In this document: piece after piece, positions 5,378 to 54,088 of the stretch
Position numbering within the stretch: the stretch's first letter is position 1
Layout of the letters: each line of letters begins with the position of its first letter
Sequence record: MZ477002.1
Source of the DNA: Acinetobacter phage Phab24
Strand: one strand, 5' to 3'
DNA: 64,000 nucleotides
Program-made: the position numbers and the translations under genes
Notes under the pieces: model-generated
What the model saw: only the letters and a program-made list of their open reading frames with translations
The model's database searches: none
Told to the model about the DNA's origin: nothing

Positions 5378-5953
5378 TTAAACTAAAGTTCTCAATCTTG
5401 TCATTGCTGTATCAGCAGATTCCATAATCTTGTCTGTGAAATCACTAAAGTCAATTCCAATCAATCCACCAATCTCAATTAGTCGAATAATAGAAGCCAA
5501 CTTATCGTAAAGATCATCAACACTTCCATTACCAGCAATATTATAAGCTCCATTGTGACAAACAAATGTCCAAACAACTTCACCTAATTCTGAACCTCTA
5601 GTAACTATTGGTTCTGTCTCAAAGAAACAATCCATTGAAGTGAAGTGTAATTTACCACTCTTATCTTCAATCTCTAAAGGAATCTTTAAATCAGCACCGA
5701 ACTTCTGATAAGCTTTAAAAACCAAATGAAGCCATGTGTTAGCTTCACTTGATTGCATTACATAGACATTAATTCTATAGCTACCATACTTATCAATGAA
5801 TGCAGAATGACTACCATCCATTGCTTTTCTAAATGTAGTTGCTGGAGCATCACGCTCAATTTCAAATAAGTTAGTTGTTCCAAAACCCTCTACATTAATA
5901 CCGAAAAGTTTAACTCGCGTGGCGCTAGGAACATAACTATGTAATAAAGACAT
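5378..5953 (-). CDS. Tail/neck structural protein
   Basis: 191-aa ORF in the structural operon. Confidence 0.4.
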   Translation of the reverse strand: MSLLHSYVPSATRVKLFGINVEGFGTTNLFEIERDAPATTFRKAMDGSHSAFIDKYGSYRINVYVMQSSEANTWLHLVFKAYQKFGADLKIPLEIEDKSGKLHFTSMDCFFETEPIVTRGSELGEVVWTFVCHNGAYNIAGNGSVDDLYDKLASIIRLIEIGGLIGIDFSDFTDKIMESADTAMTRLRTLV

Positions 5954-5961
5954 ACATCACC

Positions 5962-6498
5962 TTACGCTGTTAATTGTTTCCATTGATCATCAACAACAAC
6001 ACCCAGTTTCTCTAAAGTATCTGCTGTTTCTTGATCAATTAAACCAGAACCACCAATGTGTGATTCACTTGAAGCTAGAACAATCATCCACTCACGAGTC
6101 GAAGTTGCACTACCAAACTCTTGAGTTTGAGGTCGTTTAACAAAAGATTGACTTGAGTAAATATAAGAACGACCTGATTTATCAGTAATTGTACAAGTGA
6201 AAATACCTTGAATACCTGTTAAATCTTGCTCGTCAAATCGTGCAATTCCAGATAAAACATCATTACTACGAGAGGTTTGATCTAAGCTAATAGTTGCACG
6301 GTAAGTAGTTGTCTTACGGTGTGTACGAGTTGTTACAGCATCTGGACTTTCAGTTTCAGTCCATGTTTCATCAGGGAATTCAATTGAAACAATAGAATCC
6401 TGTGAATAACCACCAATTACGTGAGTAATACCTGTAGCTGGATGGTTAATAACGATTGTGAGTGCTGATGGGATATATGAAGTAATTGGATTTGCCAT
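5962..6498 (-). CDS. Tail structural protein
   Basis: 178-aa ORF in the structural operon. Confidence 0.4.
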   Translation of the reverse strand: MANPITSYIPSALTIVINHPATGITHVIGGYSQDSIVSIEFPDETWTETESPDAVTTRTHRKTTTYRATISLDQTSRSNDVLSGIARFDEQDLTGIQGIFTCTITDKSGRSYIYSSQSFVKRPQTQEFGSATSTREWMIVLASSESHIGGSGLIDQETADTLEKLGVVVDDQWKQLTA

Positions 6499-18662: not shown

Positions 18663-19025
18663 TCAAAAGAAGACATGGTTTCCGATTTTACATTTTAATG
18701 TTTTCCCAAAGCGAACACCTAATCGTTGGTGGTTGAAGTATAAACTTCCTTTGGTATAATTTGTTTTCTTTGTAGAAAAGTTCTTCGCTACTTTCAGCGA
18801 TTCATCCCAAGCCTTATTTTCATGCTTAGGCGGTTTTAAAGATTGTGAACCTTTATACCAAGAAAACTGCCCTCTTTGTTTAACTACACCACAATATGAA
18901 TCAGGATAATCATTATGATTACTCCTATTGTGAATAACTTCTGCAACAGCATACTGTCCTTTAGTTGGTTCACCTTTCGACTCATTATATATAGCAATAG
19001 CTAAACATAATATAGCTTCTGTCAT
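18663..19025 (-). CDS. SleB/CwlJ-family cell wall hydrolase (candidate endolysin)
   Basis: The stretch ILCLAIAIYNESKGEP..GQYAVAEVIHNR..QFSW matches the Hydrolase_2 (SleB) signature. First gene of the late operon. Confidence 0.65.
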   Translation of the reverse strand: MTEAILCLAIAIYNESKGEPTKGQYAVAEVIHNRSNHNDYPDSYCGVVKQRGQFSWYKGSQSLKPPKHENKAWDESLKVAKNFSTKKTNYTKGSLYFNHQRLGVRFGKTLKCKIGNHVFF

Positions 19026-21188: not shown

Positions 21189-22013
21189 TTGGGTTTAAAC
21201 AATCGAGAGTATAAAGAACTTGAGAAGTTAAAGAAGAAGAGTGGTTTTACAAAGTTATCTGTGTCTGAGCAAAGACGATTGGAGCGTTTACAAGGATTAC
21301 TAGATAATGATAAAAAGCAGGTAGCAAAAGATAAGTGGGAAAATGACCGATCTCTTAAAGCTCAACAGCTTCATATCCAAACTCTGAATGAAAACCAGAG
21401 TAAGTTTTTAAGAAGTATGCGAATGAACACAATCACAATAGGTTCTGGTTCTAGCGGTACTGGAAAAAGCTATTTAGCTTGTCGATATGCTGCTTCTGAG
21501 TTACTTGCTGGGAATATTAAGAAGATTGTAATAACACGACCATACGTTGCTGTATCTGGAAGAACAACAGGTTTTAAACCAAACACTGATATTGAAAAAC
21601 TTAGAGCTTTTGTCTTACCTATGTTGGGTTATTTGGGAGAGGTTCTTGGTGAAGAATATGTTGAGAATCAACTTCAAATGGGAGGAACAATTGAACTAGC
21701 CCCTCTTGAGAGTATTCGAGGTAGAAACTTTGATTCTGCAATTATCATCTCTGATGAAAGTTCGAATATGACGATTGGTGAGTTTCAGGCATTATCTACT
21801 CGACTAGGTAAAGATACTCGTTGGTTTTGTATCGGTGATAATGCTCAATGTGACACAAACAACAGTGGTTTGAAGTGGTTTGAAAACTTGGTTGATAAAC
21901 ATGAAATTCCTAGCATTGGTGTGGTTAAGTTTACACATGACGATATTGTACGTTCTGGTATGGTTAAAGAGCTGGTTATTGCTTTTGAGAAAGATGGTGG
22001 TTATAAAAGTTAA
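21189..22013 (+). CDS. phoH: PhoH-like ATPase
   Basis: TIGSGSSGTGKSYLACRYAA (Walker A) followed by ITRPYVAVSGRTTGFKPN, typical of PhoH. TTG start after GGAGGTG. Confidence 0.8.
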   Translation: MGLNNREYKELEKLKKKSGFTKLSVSEQRRLERLQGLLDNDKKQVAKDKWENDRSLKAQQLHIQTLNENQSKFLRSMRMNTITIGSGSSGTGKSYLACRYAASELLAGNIKKIVITRPYVAVSGRTTGFKPNTDIEKLRAFVLPMLGYLGEVLGEEYVENQLQMGGTIELAPLESIRGRNFDSAIIISDESSNMTIGEFQALSTRLGKDTRWFCIGDNAQCDTNNSGLKWFENLVDKHEIPSIGVVKFTHDDIVRSGMVKELVIAFEKDGGYKS

Positions 22014-22081: not shown

Positions 22082-22810
22082 ATGTTTAACTCAAAACAAT
22101 TAAATACGGTTTCACAAGAAGGTGTGTTTTCACCAAACATTTATGCTATTCCTAAAACATCTATGAAGTATTGCATTAGTATTACAGACAACATTTCAGA
22201 TGTTTTTATATATGACGAGGTATTAGCTATCCTAGATAATGCTGAGGAGGGAGATGAAGTCATTTTTACTATCGCTAGTTATGGAGGTCATTTAAACAGC
22301 TTGTTAAGTTTAAGGTCGTCAATTCTTTCAACGAGAGCTGAAGTCACGGGTAAGCTTGTATCACACTCTTGTAGCGCTGCTGGAATGTTATTATTATCTT
22401 GTCACAATAAAGTTGTTTATCCTAACACAACGTTTCATGCCCATAATGCAACTTATGGTGTGTATGGAAAAAGTGCAGACATTAAAGCGCAGGTTGATTT
22501 TGAAACTAAGCAGCTTGAAAGGTTAATGGTAGATGTTTACGGAGGATTTCTTGATGTTGAGAAAGAAATTCCACTTCTTTTGGAAGGAAAAGAGTTTTAT
22601 TTTTCTTCGGAAGAAACATTAGAGCGAATTATCAATCAGAACAAATACCGTGAGGAATTGGAAGCAAAACAGATACAACAAGAGATTGACGAAGCTAATA
22701 AACCTGCTGATTTATCTGATTACACAACAGAAGAACTTGAGGCTGAATTGGGATTATATCAAGAAGATATTAAAATGATTCGTACAGAATTGAAGAAGAG
22801 GTTAAAATAA
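22082..22810 (+). CDS. ClpP-like serine protease-fold protein with an acidic coiled-coil C-terminus
   Basis: IFTIASYGGHLNSLLSLRSSILS..VTGKLVSHSCSAAGMLLLSCHNKVVYPNTTFHAHNATYG aligns with the ClpP core (I.SPGG...G.AAS.G..LL..G....R...P.....H.P). The C-terminal 90 aa are an E/K-rich helix. Confidence 0.6.
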   Translation: MFNSKQLNTVSQEGVFSPNIYAIPKTSMKYCISITDNISDVFIYDEVLAILDNAEEGDEVIFTIASYGGHLNSLLSLRSSILSTRAEVTGKLVSHSCSAAGMLLLSCHNKVVYPNTTFHAHNATYGVYGKSADIKAQVDFETKQLERLMVDVYGGFLDVEKEIPLLLEGKEFYFSSEETLERIINQNKYREELEAKQIQQEIDEANKPADLSDYTTEELEAELGLYQEDIKMIRTELKKRLK

Positions 22811-22811
22811 A

Positions 22812-23360
22812 ATGTACACAATAGCTTTTTCTTATCTTATTAAATTATGGCGTGAAATATTAATTGTTGTATTTGCAATCTCATTAATTGGGATGTTAAT
22901 GCACACAGACAGTCTTAAAAGAAATTATGAGAAAAAGCTATCTGATAAAGATGTCGCTTATATTTCCTTAAAGAATGATATGTCTGCTAAACTTCTTGAA
23001 GAGCAAAATAATTCAATAAGAAAGGTTAATGAATTAAATAAAGAGTATTTAAAGTTACAGGAGAAACATAAACATGATATTGAGGAGATTTCTGCTTCTC
23101 GTGATCTGCTTGATTCCGACCTTGAGCGCTTGCTCAACCAAACCGATAAACTCGGAAGTCGGAGTAGTTCCACTGAAGGTAGTAATACCAAAACCTCCGA
23201 CAGTGTACAAGGGAGAGAATTACAAGGGTTGCGAGAGTCATTTAAAATGTGTGCAACAGAATATGCAGATATGGGAGAAGAAGCTGACAGATTAGCTAAC
23301 TCTGTGGAGATACTAACTGAGGCATGGAAAGAACTTGAACAAAAATATAACACAGAATGA
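22812..23360 (+). CDS. i-spanin (Rz-like)
   Basis: N-terminal TM helix (ILIVVFAISLIGMLM) followed by a long coiled coil. An o-spanin ORF is embedded in the +1 frame. Confidence 0.65.
   Translation: MYTIAFSYLIKLWREILIVVFAISLIGMLMHTDSLKRNYEKKLSDKDVAYISLKNDMSAKLLEEQNNSIRKVNELNKEYLKLQEKHKHDIEEISASRDLLDSDLERLLNQTDKLGSRSSSTEGSNTKTSDSVQGRELQGLRESFKMCATEYADMGEEADRLANSVEILTEAWKELEQKYNTE
23074..23295 (+). CDS. o-spanin (Rz1-like lipoprotein) embedded in the i-spanin gene
   Basis: Signal peptide with lipobox LLLVICLIPTLSAC and a Pro-rich mature part (VVPLKVVIPKPPTVYK). Lies entirely inside 22812..23360 in another frame. Confidence 0.6.
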   Translation: MILRRFLLLVICLIPTLSACSTKPINSEVGVVPLKVVIPKPPTVYKGENYKGCESHLKCVQQNMQIWEKKLTD

Positions 23361-46362: not shown

Positions 46363-46425
46363 TATAAATATCCTCTTAACAGACTTGACATAAACGTTGA
46401 GTCTGTTTTATTATGTATATATAAA

Positions 46426-47465: not shown

Positions 47466-47502
47466 GAGATGATTATCCCAAGTTGATAGTCATCTTTTTT
47501 AT
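47466..47502 (+). terminator. Rho-independent terminator
   Basis: GATGATTATC-ccaagtt-GATAGTCATC hairpin (one mismatch) followed by TTTTTTATT. Confidence 0.55.
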
Positions 47503-48935: not shown

Positions 48936-49435
48936 AGAAATATATGGAACACGTAAAAACACTGTCTTCAGCAACACTTTTAAGAACAAAAAACATTCCA
49001 CTAACTTACTGTAAATATAAAAAAGTTTTATCCGAAGACCATCTCAAGTCAGTTGTTTGTAATTTCCACCCTACTATTCAGTTAATTATACATGAAATAT
49101 TAAAACATACAGAAGGATTATTTGAGAAGTATGATCACTGTTATCTTAATGTTAAAGTTCGTGATCTGAAAACTGGAGATTCAGGTGACGACCTTAATCA
49201 AGTTCATTTAGATTGGACAAATGATCCTAATCACCCTAATAAAGAAGAAACACACTTCTTATACACAAGTACAGGTGGTACAAAGTTCTATGTATATGAT
49301 GAAGTTATTGGTGAAACATTACCGAACAGTATTTATAAATATCATCGTGAATATCATCAAAGTCCGCGTGTAAAAAGTGCTTGCAAAAGAGTTATGATTC
49401 GATTATCATTTGTAGACACTTTATGTCAGAGGTAA
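48932..49435 (+). CDS. Hypothetical protein (possible HxD...H metal site)
   Basis: 167 aa. VHLDWTNDPNHPNKEETHF is weakly 2OG-oxygenase-like. Confidence 0.45.
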   Translation: MEKYMEHVKTLSSATLLRTKNIPLTYCKYKKVLSEDHLKSVVCNFHPTIQLIIHEILKHTEGLFEKYDHCYLNVKVRDLKTGDSGDDLNQVHLDWTNDPNHPNKEETHFLYTSTGGTKFYVYDEVIGETLPNSIYKYHREYHQSPRVKSACKRVMIRLSFVDTLCQR

Positions 49436-49463
49436 ATCTCATGAAACATTCTGGAGAAAGTTA

Positions 49464-49976
49464 ATGGAAATTATGTGGATCATATTATCAATTATGTTTG
49501 GAATAGTAGCTACAATCTTTGTACACGACTTTATCAATAATGATGGAAAATCAAAATCTAAAAAATCACCTATAACATTTGTAAGAACAAGGGGTTTAGA
49601 GTCTCTAAAAGCTGAATACAAAGCTAATTATCTTTGGGCTTGTAAAACATTTGGAGTGTCCCATAGTGTATTTACTGACACATCTGAAACAGAATATGGT
49701 GGTAGGTATTGGTTGTATAAGCATGTAGTACGAATAGGCGATTCATACGGAGGTAAATATTTATACCCTCATAATTTACCATTCCCAAAAACACAGATTT
49801 CTGAAACAGGACTCTGTTTTGATAAAGAAGCTCCTACTTGGGTGTATTCTTTCATGGTTGAATTTAACGAAATTGTAAACAAGGTTAGGGACTTTCACAA
49901 TTCAGAAGATATTAAACTTTACATCAAGTACGGTGTAAGTTATAAATGTCTTATGAGAAACATTATTGGAGATTAA
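49464..49976 (+). CDS. Single-pass membrane protein, tandem paralog A
   Basis: N-terminal TM helix (IILSIMFGIVATIFV). The C-terminal LYIKYGVSYKCLMRNII matches LYKKYKINYTNLLTNIL of the next gene. Confidence 0.5.
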   Translation: MEIMWIILSIMFGIVATIFVHDFINNDGKSKSKKSPITFVRTRGLESLKAEYKANYLWACKTFGVSHSVFTDTSETEYGGRYWLYKHVVRIGDSYGGKYLYPHNLPFPKTQISETGLCFDKEAPTWVYSFMVEFNEIVNKVRDFHNSEDIKLYIKYGVSYKCLMRNIIGD

Positions 49977-49977
49977 A

Positions 49978-50460
49978 ATGGTTTGGTTATTATTCATATT
50001 ATGTATAGCAATCGCTCTATTCATATGGTTTATTATTTTTAGTGGTGATAAATTGGAGACAGAGAAAACTTTACATGGTTCAACCTACGTAAAAGCAAAT
50101 AATAAAGAGAAGTTTATTCTTAATTATCAATGGTGTGTTGAAAATTTAACATTAAACTACAAGAATTTGTTTATTGATTATGAGCAATATCTCGATGATT
50201 CTAGACGTTTTGATTATTTTATTGTTTATAAACTGTCTAACTATCAGGCAACTTACTCGTTCAAAGAGTTAGGAAATCTTAATGTAAAAGTAACTAATGG
50301 TGCCGGTTATGATTGTGGAAATGTAAATGCATTTTATAACAAGTTTAACAGTAAGGTAGAAGCAATACGTAAACTTTTAGATCAACAAGATATGATTTTA
50401 TATAAAAAATATAAAATTAATTATACAAACTTGTTGACAAACATTTTAAAAAACAAGTAA
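49978..50460 (+). CDS. Single-pass membrane protein, tandem paralog B
   Basis: N-terminal TM helix (LLFILCIAIALFIWFIIF). Same architecture as paralog A. Confidence 0.5.
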   Translation: MVWLLFILCIAIALFIWFIIFSGDKLETEKTLHGSTYVKANNKEKFILNYQWCVENLTLNYKNLFIDYEQYLDDSRRFDYFIVYKLSNYQATYSFKELGNLNVKVTNGAGYDCGNVNAFYNKFNSKVEAIRKLLDQQDMILYKKYKINYTNLLTNILKNK

Positions 50461-50527
50461 TATACAAACACACAAGGAGAGAGAAATTTATTCTCCTCCC
50501 AATTTAATTAAACAAAGGAGAGACATT

Positions 50528-51211
50528 ATGTCATGGTTATCTAAATTACTTTCAGTATCATCTAACGTAGTAACTGAGAAAGCTGAAAAAGTGTTGGACA
50601 ATGTAGTAGATATTAAACGTGAAGGTGGAGCAATTATTCGTAAGATTGACGGTAAAGTTACGGCACTTCGCACACGTTTAACTGAAGCACAAACTCAAGT
50701 TCAAATGAACAAAGATGAAATTAAAACTTTAAATCAACAAGTAGCATTAATGAATGAAACAGCAGCTCGTGCCGTTAAAGCTGGTAATGATGAAGATGCT
50801 ATTCAAGCACTCAATCGTGCAGAGTTGTTTACTGAAACAATCAATAGCTTACAGCAATCTAACGATATTTTAGAACCTGTTATTGCACAACAGTTAAATT
50901 ATATCCAAACACTGGAAGCTGAGAAGCGCAGTTTAGAGACAGAGATTCGTAGAATGGCTATTGAAGAAAAAGCTTATAATTTACGCGCTGATATGTTGGG
51001 TGGTGTTGATGGAACATTTGGTTATAATATTGATGATCTACGTAAACGTGTACAGAAAGCTAAAGCATCCGTAGAAGCTAAAGAGATTATTTCTGAGAAA
51101 CTTGGTGAGAACGTTGAGAAGAAATATGAATCAGCTCCTCGTGCTTCAATTGAAAGTAAACTTGAGGCATTGAAATTACAGCATGGTAAATCAGAAACTA
51201 CTTCTGAATAA
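50528..51211 (+). CDS. PspA/IM30 (Vipp1/ESCRT-III-like) family protein
   Basis: N-terminal amphipathic MSWLSKLLSVSSNVVTEKAEKVLDN compares with E. coli PspA [25 protein letters not shown]. The rest is a long coiled coil (AIQALNRAELF..., LEAEKRSLETEIRRMAIEEKAYNLRADM). Length of 227 aa is typical. Confidence 0.6.
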   Translation: MSWLSKLLSVSSNVVTEKAEKVLDNVVDIKREGGAIIRKIDGKVTALRTRLTEAQTQVQMNKDEIKTLNQQVALMNETAARAVKAGNDEDAIQALNRAELFTETINSLQQSNDILEPVIAQQLNYIQTLEAEKRSLETEIRRMAIEEKAYNLRADMLGGVDGTFGYNIDDLRKRVQKAKASVEAKEIISEKLGENVEKKYESAPRASIESKLEALKLQHGKSETTSE

Positions 51212-51237
51212 TATTTAAAATTAAGACAAGCTTAAAA

Positions 51238-51266
51238 TTAAGACACCTTCGGGTGTCTTTTTTATT
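51238..51266 (+). terminator. Rho-independent terminator
   Basis: AGACACC-TTCG-GGTGTCT hairpin followed by TTTTTTATT. Confidence 0.75.
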
Positions 51267-51330
51267 GACAATAGTTTTATGCCATGTCATACTCTATAAA
51301 TCATCTACACTGAGTAATAGGAATAGTATT

Positions 51331-51522
51331 ATGACTATTAAAGAGTTAAATAAATTATATCTTAAATGGAATAGTGGGACTAGACAGCAGTTATTTGGAC
51401 AATATGTTTTAGCTAACTCTGTATTATCACACCATTTAACTGAAGAACAATGTAATTATATTTATTATGAGACTAACAGTGTTGTTGCTTATAATAAAAT
51501 TTTATTAATTTGTACTGACTAA
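51331..51522 (+). CDS. Hypothetical small protein
   Basis: MTIKELNKL... after TAGGAATAGTATT. Lies downstream of a TTGACA-containing promoter-like region at 51266. Confidence 0.4.
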   Translation: MTIKELNKLYLKWNSGTRQQLFGQYVLANSVLSHHLTEEQCNYIYYETNSVVAYNKILLICTD

Positions 51523-51532
51523 GGAGAAAACT

Positions 51533-53243: not shown

Positions 53244-53270
53244 AAGAGAGCCGAAGCTCTCTTTTTATTT
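53244..53270 (+). terminator. Rho-independent terminator
   Basis: AGAGAGC-CGAA-GCTCTCT hairpin followed by TTTTTATTTT. Confidence 0.7.
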
Positions 53271-54052: not shown

Positions 54053-54088
54053 TATAAAAAAGCCCTGCTCATGCAGGGTTTCTTTTTG
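54053..54088. terminator. Bidirectional rho-independent terminator between convergent blocks
   Basis: AGCCCTGC-TCAT-GCAGGGT hairpin with ATAAAAAA upstream and TTCTTTTT downstream. Confidence 0.7.

Follow-up and report, generated by a model that had tools for sequence, protein, structure and literature searches.

Linkage of a divergent PspA-like gene to genes for N-terminally anchored membrane proteins in Acinetobacter phage Phab24 and its relatives

Why does a lytic phage carry a gene of the PspA/IM30 type, and do the membrane-protein genes that precede it belong to the same system? PspA, Vipp1 and ESCRT-III proteins are ancient machines of membrane repair and remodelling, the factor that recruits them to the membrane is an active question, and for phage-encoded copies of PspA the record to date consists of genome annotations and a single hypothesis paper. 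The locus considered here belongs to Phab24, a published lytic myovirus of Acinetobacter baumannii (PMC8496359) with a genome of 93,604 bp, from which a stretch of 64,000 nucleotides (record MZ477002.1; hereafter, the window) was analysed. On the + strand of the window lie a gene for a 170-amino-acid protein (m1, Phab24_id091; 49464-49976), a gene for a 160-amino-acid protein (m2, Phab24_id092; 49978-50460), and a gene for a 227-amino-acid PspA/IM30-like protein with a pI of 5.6 (50528-51211). An earlier note on this DNA had described the three as two tandem paralogous membrane proteins followed by a PspA homolog, and all three open reading frames (ORFs) are present at these positions. The PspA identity of the third gene was already known in relatives, and its linkage to a membrane partner is the new, modest comparative finding.

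The three genes are real. In each of them, synonymous changes relative to phage BS46 exceed nonsynonymous ones, with rate ratios (dN/dS) of 0.04 (PspA-like gene), 0.46 (m2), and 0.61 (m1). The surrounding region (49000-51526) has 92.5% DNA identity with BS46, and the opposite strand across the three genes contains ORFs of 40-61 amino acids only. The start of m2 is taken to be the ATG that is also used by BS46; the mechanical ORF list begins at a TTG at 49966.

The relationship of the 227-amino-acid protein to PspA is visible mainly in profiles. As a single sequence, it matches PF04012 at an E-value of 0.032 and 14.3 bits, below the gathering score of 33.9 and amid coiled-coil noise, with a collinear alignment of residues 12-222 to profile positions 7-207 of 220; a single-sequence search of the PDB returned noise only. 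An alignment of the Phab24 protein with 18 homologs (19 sequences; A1) contains 14 sequences that match PF04012 individually (best 1e-5), as do 10 of the 21 members of a second clade set. Searched against 1.84 billion representative proteins, the A1 profile retrieved 62 at E ≤ 1e-3, all of them 105-248 amino acids long and nearly all aligned end-to-end. PF04012 proteins make up 39 of the 42 weakest A1-profile matches (best 2e-40), and the match to PspA is therefore not one to a generic coiled coil. Against the PDB, the A1 profile reached PspA and Vipp1 at E-values of 0.065-0.64 only, and its top match, a designed TIM barrel, was discarded as a spurious repeat match. A broader clade profile (A3) was needed for significant PDB matches, and it aligned residues 7-220 to positions 3-217 of Vipp1 and PspA chains (6zvr, 8qbw, 8qbv, 7o3w, and others) at E-values of 1.1e-7 to 1e-4. 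A comparison of A3 with a canonical PspA set in hhalign gave a probability of 99.9%, a value inflated by one clade-like target row. Thus, the PspA/IM30 match expected in the earlier note was obtained at full length between the clade profile and solved Vipp1/PspA chains (E = 1.1e-7), whereas the single sequence falls short of the family's gathering score. The protein is not enterobacterial PspA proper, an assignment that was rejected on its score of 13.9 bits against TIGR02977 (the equivalog model, with a cutoff of 242.95), for which the alignment is collinear (19-218 to 15-216 of 219). In PHROGs, it belongs to phrog_26980, labelled "unknown function".

The predicted fold agrees with the profiles. 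An AlphaFold2 model (mean predicted local distance difference test score, 82.7; predicted template modelling score, 0.69) has helices at residues 3-84, 88-157, 168-183, 191-199, and 208-224, that is, a long hairpin of the ESCRT-III type followed by three short C-terminal helices, and Kyte-Doolittle analysis finds no hydrophobic transmembrane (TM) segment. Foldseek ranks Vipp1 and PspA first among PDB entries (7o3w at an E-value of 1.9e-3 and probability of 1.00; 8qbw, 6zvr, 7abk, and 4whe). The TM-scores are about 0.5-0.58 (0.55-0.58 for 7o3w) for what is a predicted fold; modest E-values such as these are common with all-helical proteins. The long helical PspA/Vipp1/ESCRT-III character attributed to the protein beforehand is thus borne out by the model. 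Across the clade, the N terminus MSWLSKL(F/L) is conserved, with M1, S2, and K6 invariant and a hydrophobic pattern of i/i+1/i+4/i+5, and in the comparison of A3 with the PDB it aligns with the N terminus of Vipp1. Taken together, the profiles and the model indicate that the protein is a divergent but genuine member of the PspA/IM30 family within the ESCRT-III superfamily.

The gene was found by tblastn in 27 phage records, all of them from Acinetobacter myoviruses of 94-112 kb (the BS46/TaPaz group and Saclayvirus), and many of these records already carry the label "PspA/IM30 family protein" or "shock protein A". Orthologs or clade members that already bear such a label include BS46 gp115, TaPaz_151, Acibel004 gp66, and Aci05_134, as well as proteins of TAC1 and phiAbaA1, with identities from 98% to about 33%; BFVD adds phage ME3, whose protein is likewise labelled PspA/IM30 or "shock protein A". 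The product name of BS46 gp115 (5528-6211 of locus L001) is "putative transcription regulation protein". This name appears to have been carried over from E. coli PspA, and it is unsupported because the TIGR02977 score is so far below the cutoff (13.9 bits versus 243); it is probably wrong. In all of these GenBank records, the upstream anchor genes are annotated as "hypothetical protein". A clade-specific pattern search of 185,579 bacterial species genomes returned no clade relative, and a pattern search based on A1 returned one IMG/VR locus only; the clade was seen only in phage genomes and in phage-sized or short unclassified metagenomic contigs. In the literature library that was searched, no paper was found that discusses the gene or the anchor-PspA pairing, nor any statement on whether Acinetobacter has a Psp system of its own.

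In each of the two upstream products, the only hydrophobic stretch lies right at the N terminus (Kyte-Doolittle 19-residue means of 2.3 for m1 and 3.1 for m2), so that both of the ORFs for which TM helices had been proposed do carry one. In m1, the TM helix (about residues 3-21) is followed by a lysine-rich linker and a helical C-domain of about 130 amino acids; in m2, the TM helix spans residues 1-23. The proposed paralogy was recovered by BLASTP (22% identity over the full length, E = 2e-6), and m1 and m2 fall in one hidden Markov model (HMM) family. After removal of the TM segments, the soluble domains have a Smith-Waterman score of 75, against 30.7 ± 5.4 for 1000 shuffles, none of which reaches it. 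Because this score is 8.2 standard deviations above the shuffles, the paralogy read from these alignments is real, if weak. The m1 protein represents a "WAC..FGV" subtype, which resembles most single-copy family members, and m2 a "WC..NLTL" subtype. In a neighbor-joining distance tree, m2 groups with its ortholog TaPaz_152 and with BS46 gp116, and m1 groups with BS46 gp117 and TaPaz_153; the duplication therefore predates the split of these phages.

The description of the membrane genes as novel also stands: the family has no match in Pfam, PDB sequences, NCBIfam, or structure comparison (for m1, with a model based on alignment A6). Among 5.8 billion proteins searched by profile, there are only 29 relatives, and the long contigs among them are phage-sized, up to about 90-98 kb. 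In PHROGs, m1 has only a 15-residue match in the TM helix (E = 0.015) and m2 has none; no holin or superinfection-exclusion match was found. Together with m1 and m2, seven neighbouring ORFs (46.8-54 kb) lack any Pfam match, and hence no PspB, PspC, or PspF was found there.

The distribution of charge suggests how these proteins are oriented. Across 34 family members, the 15 residues that follow the TM helix contain 85 lysine or arginine residues in total, and the 0-3 residues that precede it contain 0. The positive-inside rule would then put the N terminus outside and the C-domain on the cytoplasmic side, together with the PspA-like protein. The N-terminal part of m1 is also its most variable part relative to BS46: codons 1-40 (49464-49583, compared with 4464-4583 of L001) have a dN of 0.86 and a dS of 0.52, and the flanking DNA is about 92% identical. 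By this comparison, BS46 in effect carries another allele of the m1 TM helix and linker. The BS46-type N terminus also occurs in the search hit P0025/P0026, and therefore at least two allelic N-terminal cassettes circulate.

Is the neighbourhood of anchor and PspA-like genes conserved beyond Phab24? This was assessed with the family HMM in the related loci that have upstream DNA, and each of them has a family member or another N-anchored single-pass protein immediately before the PspA-like gene or one gene removed from it. Phab24, BS46, and TaPaz have two copies immediately before the PspA-like gene, and a single copy occupies that position in L003, L006, L007-9, L010, L017, and Acibel004 and, by a weak match (E = 0.0044), in L015. 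The genes that flank the anchor-PspA pair differ between loci, and PspA identity across the linked loci extends down to about 23-35%. In L012 and L014, which have divergent PspA-like genes, the upstream gene encodes another N-anchored single-pass protein of 143-174 amino acids. Directly after the PspA-like gene, L014 (4707-4928) and L015 (4239-4469) encode an N-anchored protein of 73-76 amino acids with two CxxC pairs, resembling a zinc ribbon. At loci of the Saclayvirus type, L016 (2537-3940) and L019 (Aci05; 1873-2892) encode a protein of 339-467 amino acids between the anchor and PspA-like genes that has an acidic stretch; both versions share the C-terminal motif DGRFDVRM..DGTMVKVGE.

In Phab24, the three genes are closely spaced. 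A single nucleotide separates m1 from m2 (TAA-A-ATG), and 67 nucleotides separate m2 from the PspA-like gene, whose ATG is preceded at a distance of 7 nucleotides by a Shine-Dalgarno sequence (AAGGAG; 50515-50520, + strand); AAGGA(G/A) or AGGA precedes this start codon in 7 of 7 aligned loci. The strong terminator noted earlier behind the PspA-like gene is present at 51240-51267 on the + strand (AAGACACC-TTCG-GGTGTCTT plus a T run), with an 8-bp stem and TTCG loop at 51240-51259, followed by TTTTATTG. A TTGACA promoter-like site of the next unit begins at 51265. Within the end of m2, a sigma-70-like promoter match (TTGACA-18-TAATAT; 50434-50463, + strand; score 10/12) could provide a separate transcript for the PspA-like gene. 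TaPaz has TTGACA-17-TAATAT at the same place, and the conservation is ambiguous because the -35 hexamer overlaps conserved LLT codons. The authors of the Acibel004 record flanked their PspA gene on both sides with promoter and terminator annotations. A small hairpin between m2 and the PspA-like gene (50476-50499, + strand; -13 kcal/mol for the 81-nucleotide stretch, z = -2.3) was rejected as a conserved regulatory RNA, as it occurs only in Phab24 and BS46 and has no Rfam match; the Rfam search of the region as a whole also gave no match. Just past the PspA stop codon, there is a perfect 14-nucleotide direct repeat, TTAAAATTAAGACA, at 51215-51228 and 51232-51245 (17 nucleotides apart), the second copy of which enters the terminator stem.

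What might such a pair do? In known systems, PspA works through membrane partners such as PspB/C or LiaI. The reading proposed here as the best supported, to which a probability of roughly 45% is assigned, is a phage-specific membrane module of two parts, an anchor or adaptor and a PspA polymer, that would keep the host inner membrane sealed during infection. In this module, m1 and m2 would insert into the inner membrane with the N terminus out and the C terminus in, their helical C-domains would face the cytoplasm, and these domains would recruit or nucleate the soluble PspA-like protein. The latter, using its putatively amphipathic N-terminal helix, would attach to the membrane from the cytoplasmic side and then polymerise in the manner of PspA, LiaH, and Vipp1. 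The inner membrane would thereby stay sealed and energised during phage replication; the threats to it could be leaks from the phage's own membrane proteins and from entry, or host abortive-infection effectors that depolarise the membrane. In such a module, the engine would be the PspA-like protein, which is strongly conserved, and the fast-evolving anchors would serve as adaptors. Counted in support are the PspA homology, the predicted fold, the conserved pairing, the charge-based topology, the close gene spacing on one strand with a strong Shine-Dalgarno sequence and a terminator, the contrast in selection, and the precedents of PspB/C, of LiaI, and of an unrelated phage PspA homolog for which a membrane-protecting role was proposed (PMC9409062); the topology, physical interaction, polymerisation, and physiological purpose are inferred.

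Several observations weigh against this reading. The connection of m1 and m2 to the PspA-like protein is one of synteny, and neither of them matches a known PspA partner family (PspB PF06667, PspC PF04024, LiaI, and others). At L016 and Aci05, an intervening gene separates the family member from the PspA-like gene. The anchor and PspA-like genes need not be co-expressed, because a promoter-like site (in Acibel004, an annotated terminator and promoter) lies between them. The cytoplasmic placement of the C-domain is predicted from charge bias only. Finally, the Eisenberg hydrophobic moment of the N-terminal helix of the PspA-like protein is just 0.28-0.35, which is moderate, and the AlphaFold2 confidence for residues 1-20 is below 60.

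A bolder version of the module, which is regarded as doubtful, would be a self-contained viral system of the ESCRT-III type in virulent Acinetobacter myoviruses, likened to LEM2-CHMP7 or LiaI-LiaH, in which a fast-evolving, phage-specific TM adaptor family of no known fold or homology nucleates the PspA polymer on the host inner membrane as a counter-defence against membrane-depolarising abortive-infection effectors, and the duplicated adaptors provide two specificities. The fast evolution of the anchors (dN/dS of 0.46-0.61, and a dN of 0.86 in the TM helix and linker of m1 relative to BS46) is typical of an arms race, and could also be explained if the membrane proteins are themselves the effectors, acting in superinfection exclusion, injection blocking, or envelope take-over, and the PspA-like protein only guards against their toxicity or load. 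The retention of the tandem duplication since before the BS46/TaPaz split speaks for this possibility, as does the induction of bacterial PspA by membrane-protein stress. However, a cytoplasmic C-domain, as predicted, would be ill-suited to blocking an incoming phage at the periplasmic face, no PHROG similarity to superinfection exclusion or another function was found, and pairing with PspA this strict, maintained in very divergent loci, is more suggestive of a joint function than of incidental protection. Effector anchors of this kind are therefore considered unlikely. The same pairing bears on whether the anchor and PspA-like genes are merely neighbours with separate functions, adjacent by shared ancestry of a genome block. 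The known carriers all come from a few related groups of Acinetobacter myoviruses of about 90-110 kb, and promoter or terminator signals separate the genes in some loci, as such an explanation would predict; yet the flanking genes vary on both sides and the anchor-PspA pair is still present where PspA identity is as low as about 23-35%, which makes mere adjacency improbable.

PspA-type proteins counter proton leak, and the PspA-like protein, with or without the anchors, might therefore buffer the inner membrane against premature holin triggering and act as a lysis-delay device. One metagenomic locus (L010) fits this, as a gene for a PF07486 cell-wall hydrolase with a signal peptide (E = 1.8e-24) stands immediately after its PspA-like gene. 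It is the sole such locus, and no lysis gene adjoins the module in any other. In Phab24, a spanin-like pair (22.8-23.4 kb) and a Hydrolase_2 homolog (about 18.7-19.0 kb, other strand) are 27-31 kb away, on which ground membership of the module in the Phab24 lysis cassette was rejected, and the module is found among small genes with sigma-70-like promoters, resembling an early region. Control of lysis timing is thus quite unlikely. Lastly, the PspA-like protein could be a mimic or decoy that acts on host regulation or immunity, either by titrating a host PspA-binding factor or by decoying defences that use PspA. E. coli PspA does bind the regulator PspF, and in Bacillus a cyclase of a cyclic-oligonucleotide-based anti-phage signalling system (CBASS) is conjugated to PspA (PMC11153139). 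Nevertheless, the score against the enterobacterial model is 13.9 bits for a cutoff of 243, no PspF-like partner is known here, and the clade-pattern search of 185,579 bacterial species genomes, which returned no clade relative, leaves no obvious host counterpart to mimic. Additionally, the protein is obligately paired with a membrane anchor and has a conserved N-terminal helix, both of which suggest that it acts at the membrane, and mimicry is considered highly improbable.

Several other features of the window were recorded. The spanin-like pair consists of a 182-amino-acid N-anchored protein (22812-23360, + strand) and an embedded out-of-frame ORF of 73 amino acids with a lipobox-like LSAC (23074-23295, + strand), and from these traits it looks like an i-spanin/o-spanin pair. 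It comes just after a PhoH-like ORF (21189-22013) and a ClpP-like ORF (22082-22810), names that derive from sequence reading only. The product of about 18675-19013 (- strand) is a homolog (31% identity, E = 7e-12) of the PF07486 Hydrolase_2 protein of L010 (2536-3045), and is probably an endolysin-type phage enzyme. Terminator-like hairpins at 46378-46407, 47466-47496, 53244-53263, and 54060-54081, several of them with TTGACA promoter-like sites, break up the small ORFs of the + strand block into short units; the last of these is bidirectional and coincides with a strand switch visible in the GC skew.

A conserved phage PspA-anchor pair would offer a compact system of two or three genes in which to study how a PspA polymer is targeted, and the module might reveal the means by which lytic phages maintain an energised host membrane in the face of depolarising defences. 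Phab24, BS46, and TaPaz are candidates for phage therapy against A. baumannii, and a module that affects host range or lysis timing would be of practical interest. The proposed function is inferred, and the finding is offered as a lead for experiments.

How, then, does the locus compare with known systems? Among phages, the Kuttervirus SeF3a encodes a PspA homolog, Gp_125 (phrog_1203), that was proposed as an anti-abortive-infection factor protecting the proton motive force (PMC9409062). Like Phab24, SeF3a is a virulent myovirus that carries a PspA-like gene, and the portion of the report consulted mentions no membrane-protein partner (PMC9409062). The two proteins belong to different PHROGs, and the Phab24 protein has no phrog_1203 match at E ≤ 0.1; similar folds in Serratia, Klebsiella, and Erwinia phages appear in BFVD at weak E-values only. 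The Phab24 protein shares with PspA/IM30/Vipp1 proteins (PF04012; 6zvr, 7o3w, 7abk, 4whe) the class of about 220 amino acids, an end-to-end collinear profile alignment, a predicted alpha1-alpha2/3 hairpin with short C-terminal helices, and the hydrophobic periodicity of the N terminus, and its conserved D28 aligns with the Asp of the family "EDP" motif. In contrast, it is just about 15-18% identical to solved PspA and Vipp1 proteins and has invariant motifs of its own clade, DIKREG and ILxP.

Phab24 resembles the E. coli PspABC/PspF system in encoding small bitopic inner-membrane proteins alongside an effector of the PspA type. PspB is a single-pass protein with its N terminus out and C terminus in, which is also the topology predicted for m1 and m2. 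However, m1 and m2 are about twice as long as PspB and PspC and have no sequence similarity to them, no PspF was found around the phage unit, and the order of this unit is anchors followed by PspA. The comparison with PspB/C drawn in the earlier note therefore holds by analogy, and not as membership of m1 and m2 in PspB, PspC, or any other Pfam family. Bacillus subtilis likewise has a unit of two genes, under LiaRS control, in which the upstream gene encodes the small membrane protein LiaI, and LiaI brings the PspA homolog LiaH to the membrane. Its two TM helices and the lack of a sizeable soluble domain set LiaI apart from m1 and m2, and no homology of either to it was detected; in function, the LiaI-LiaH pair is the closest analogy to the module proposed here.

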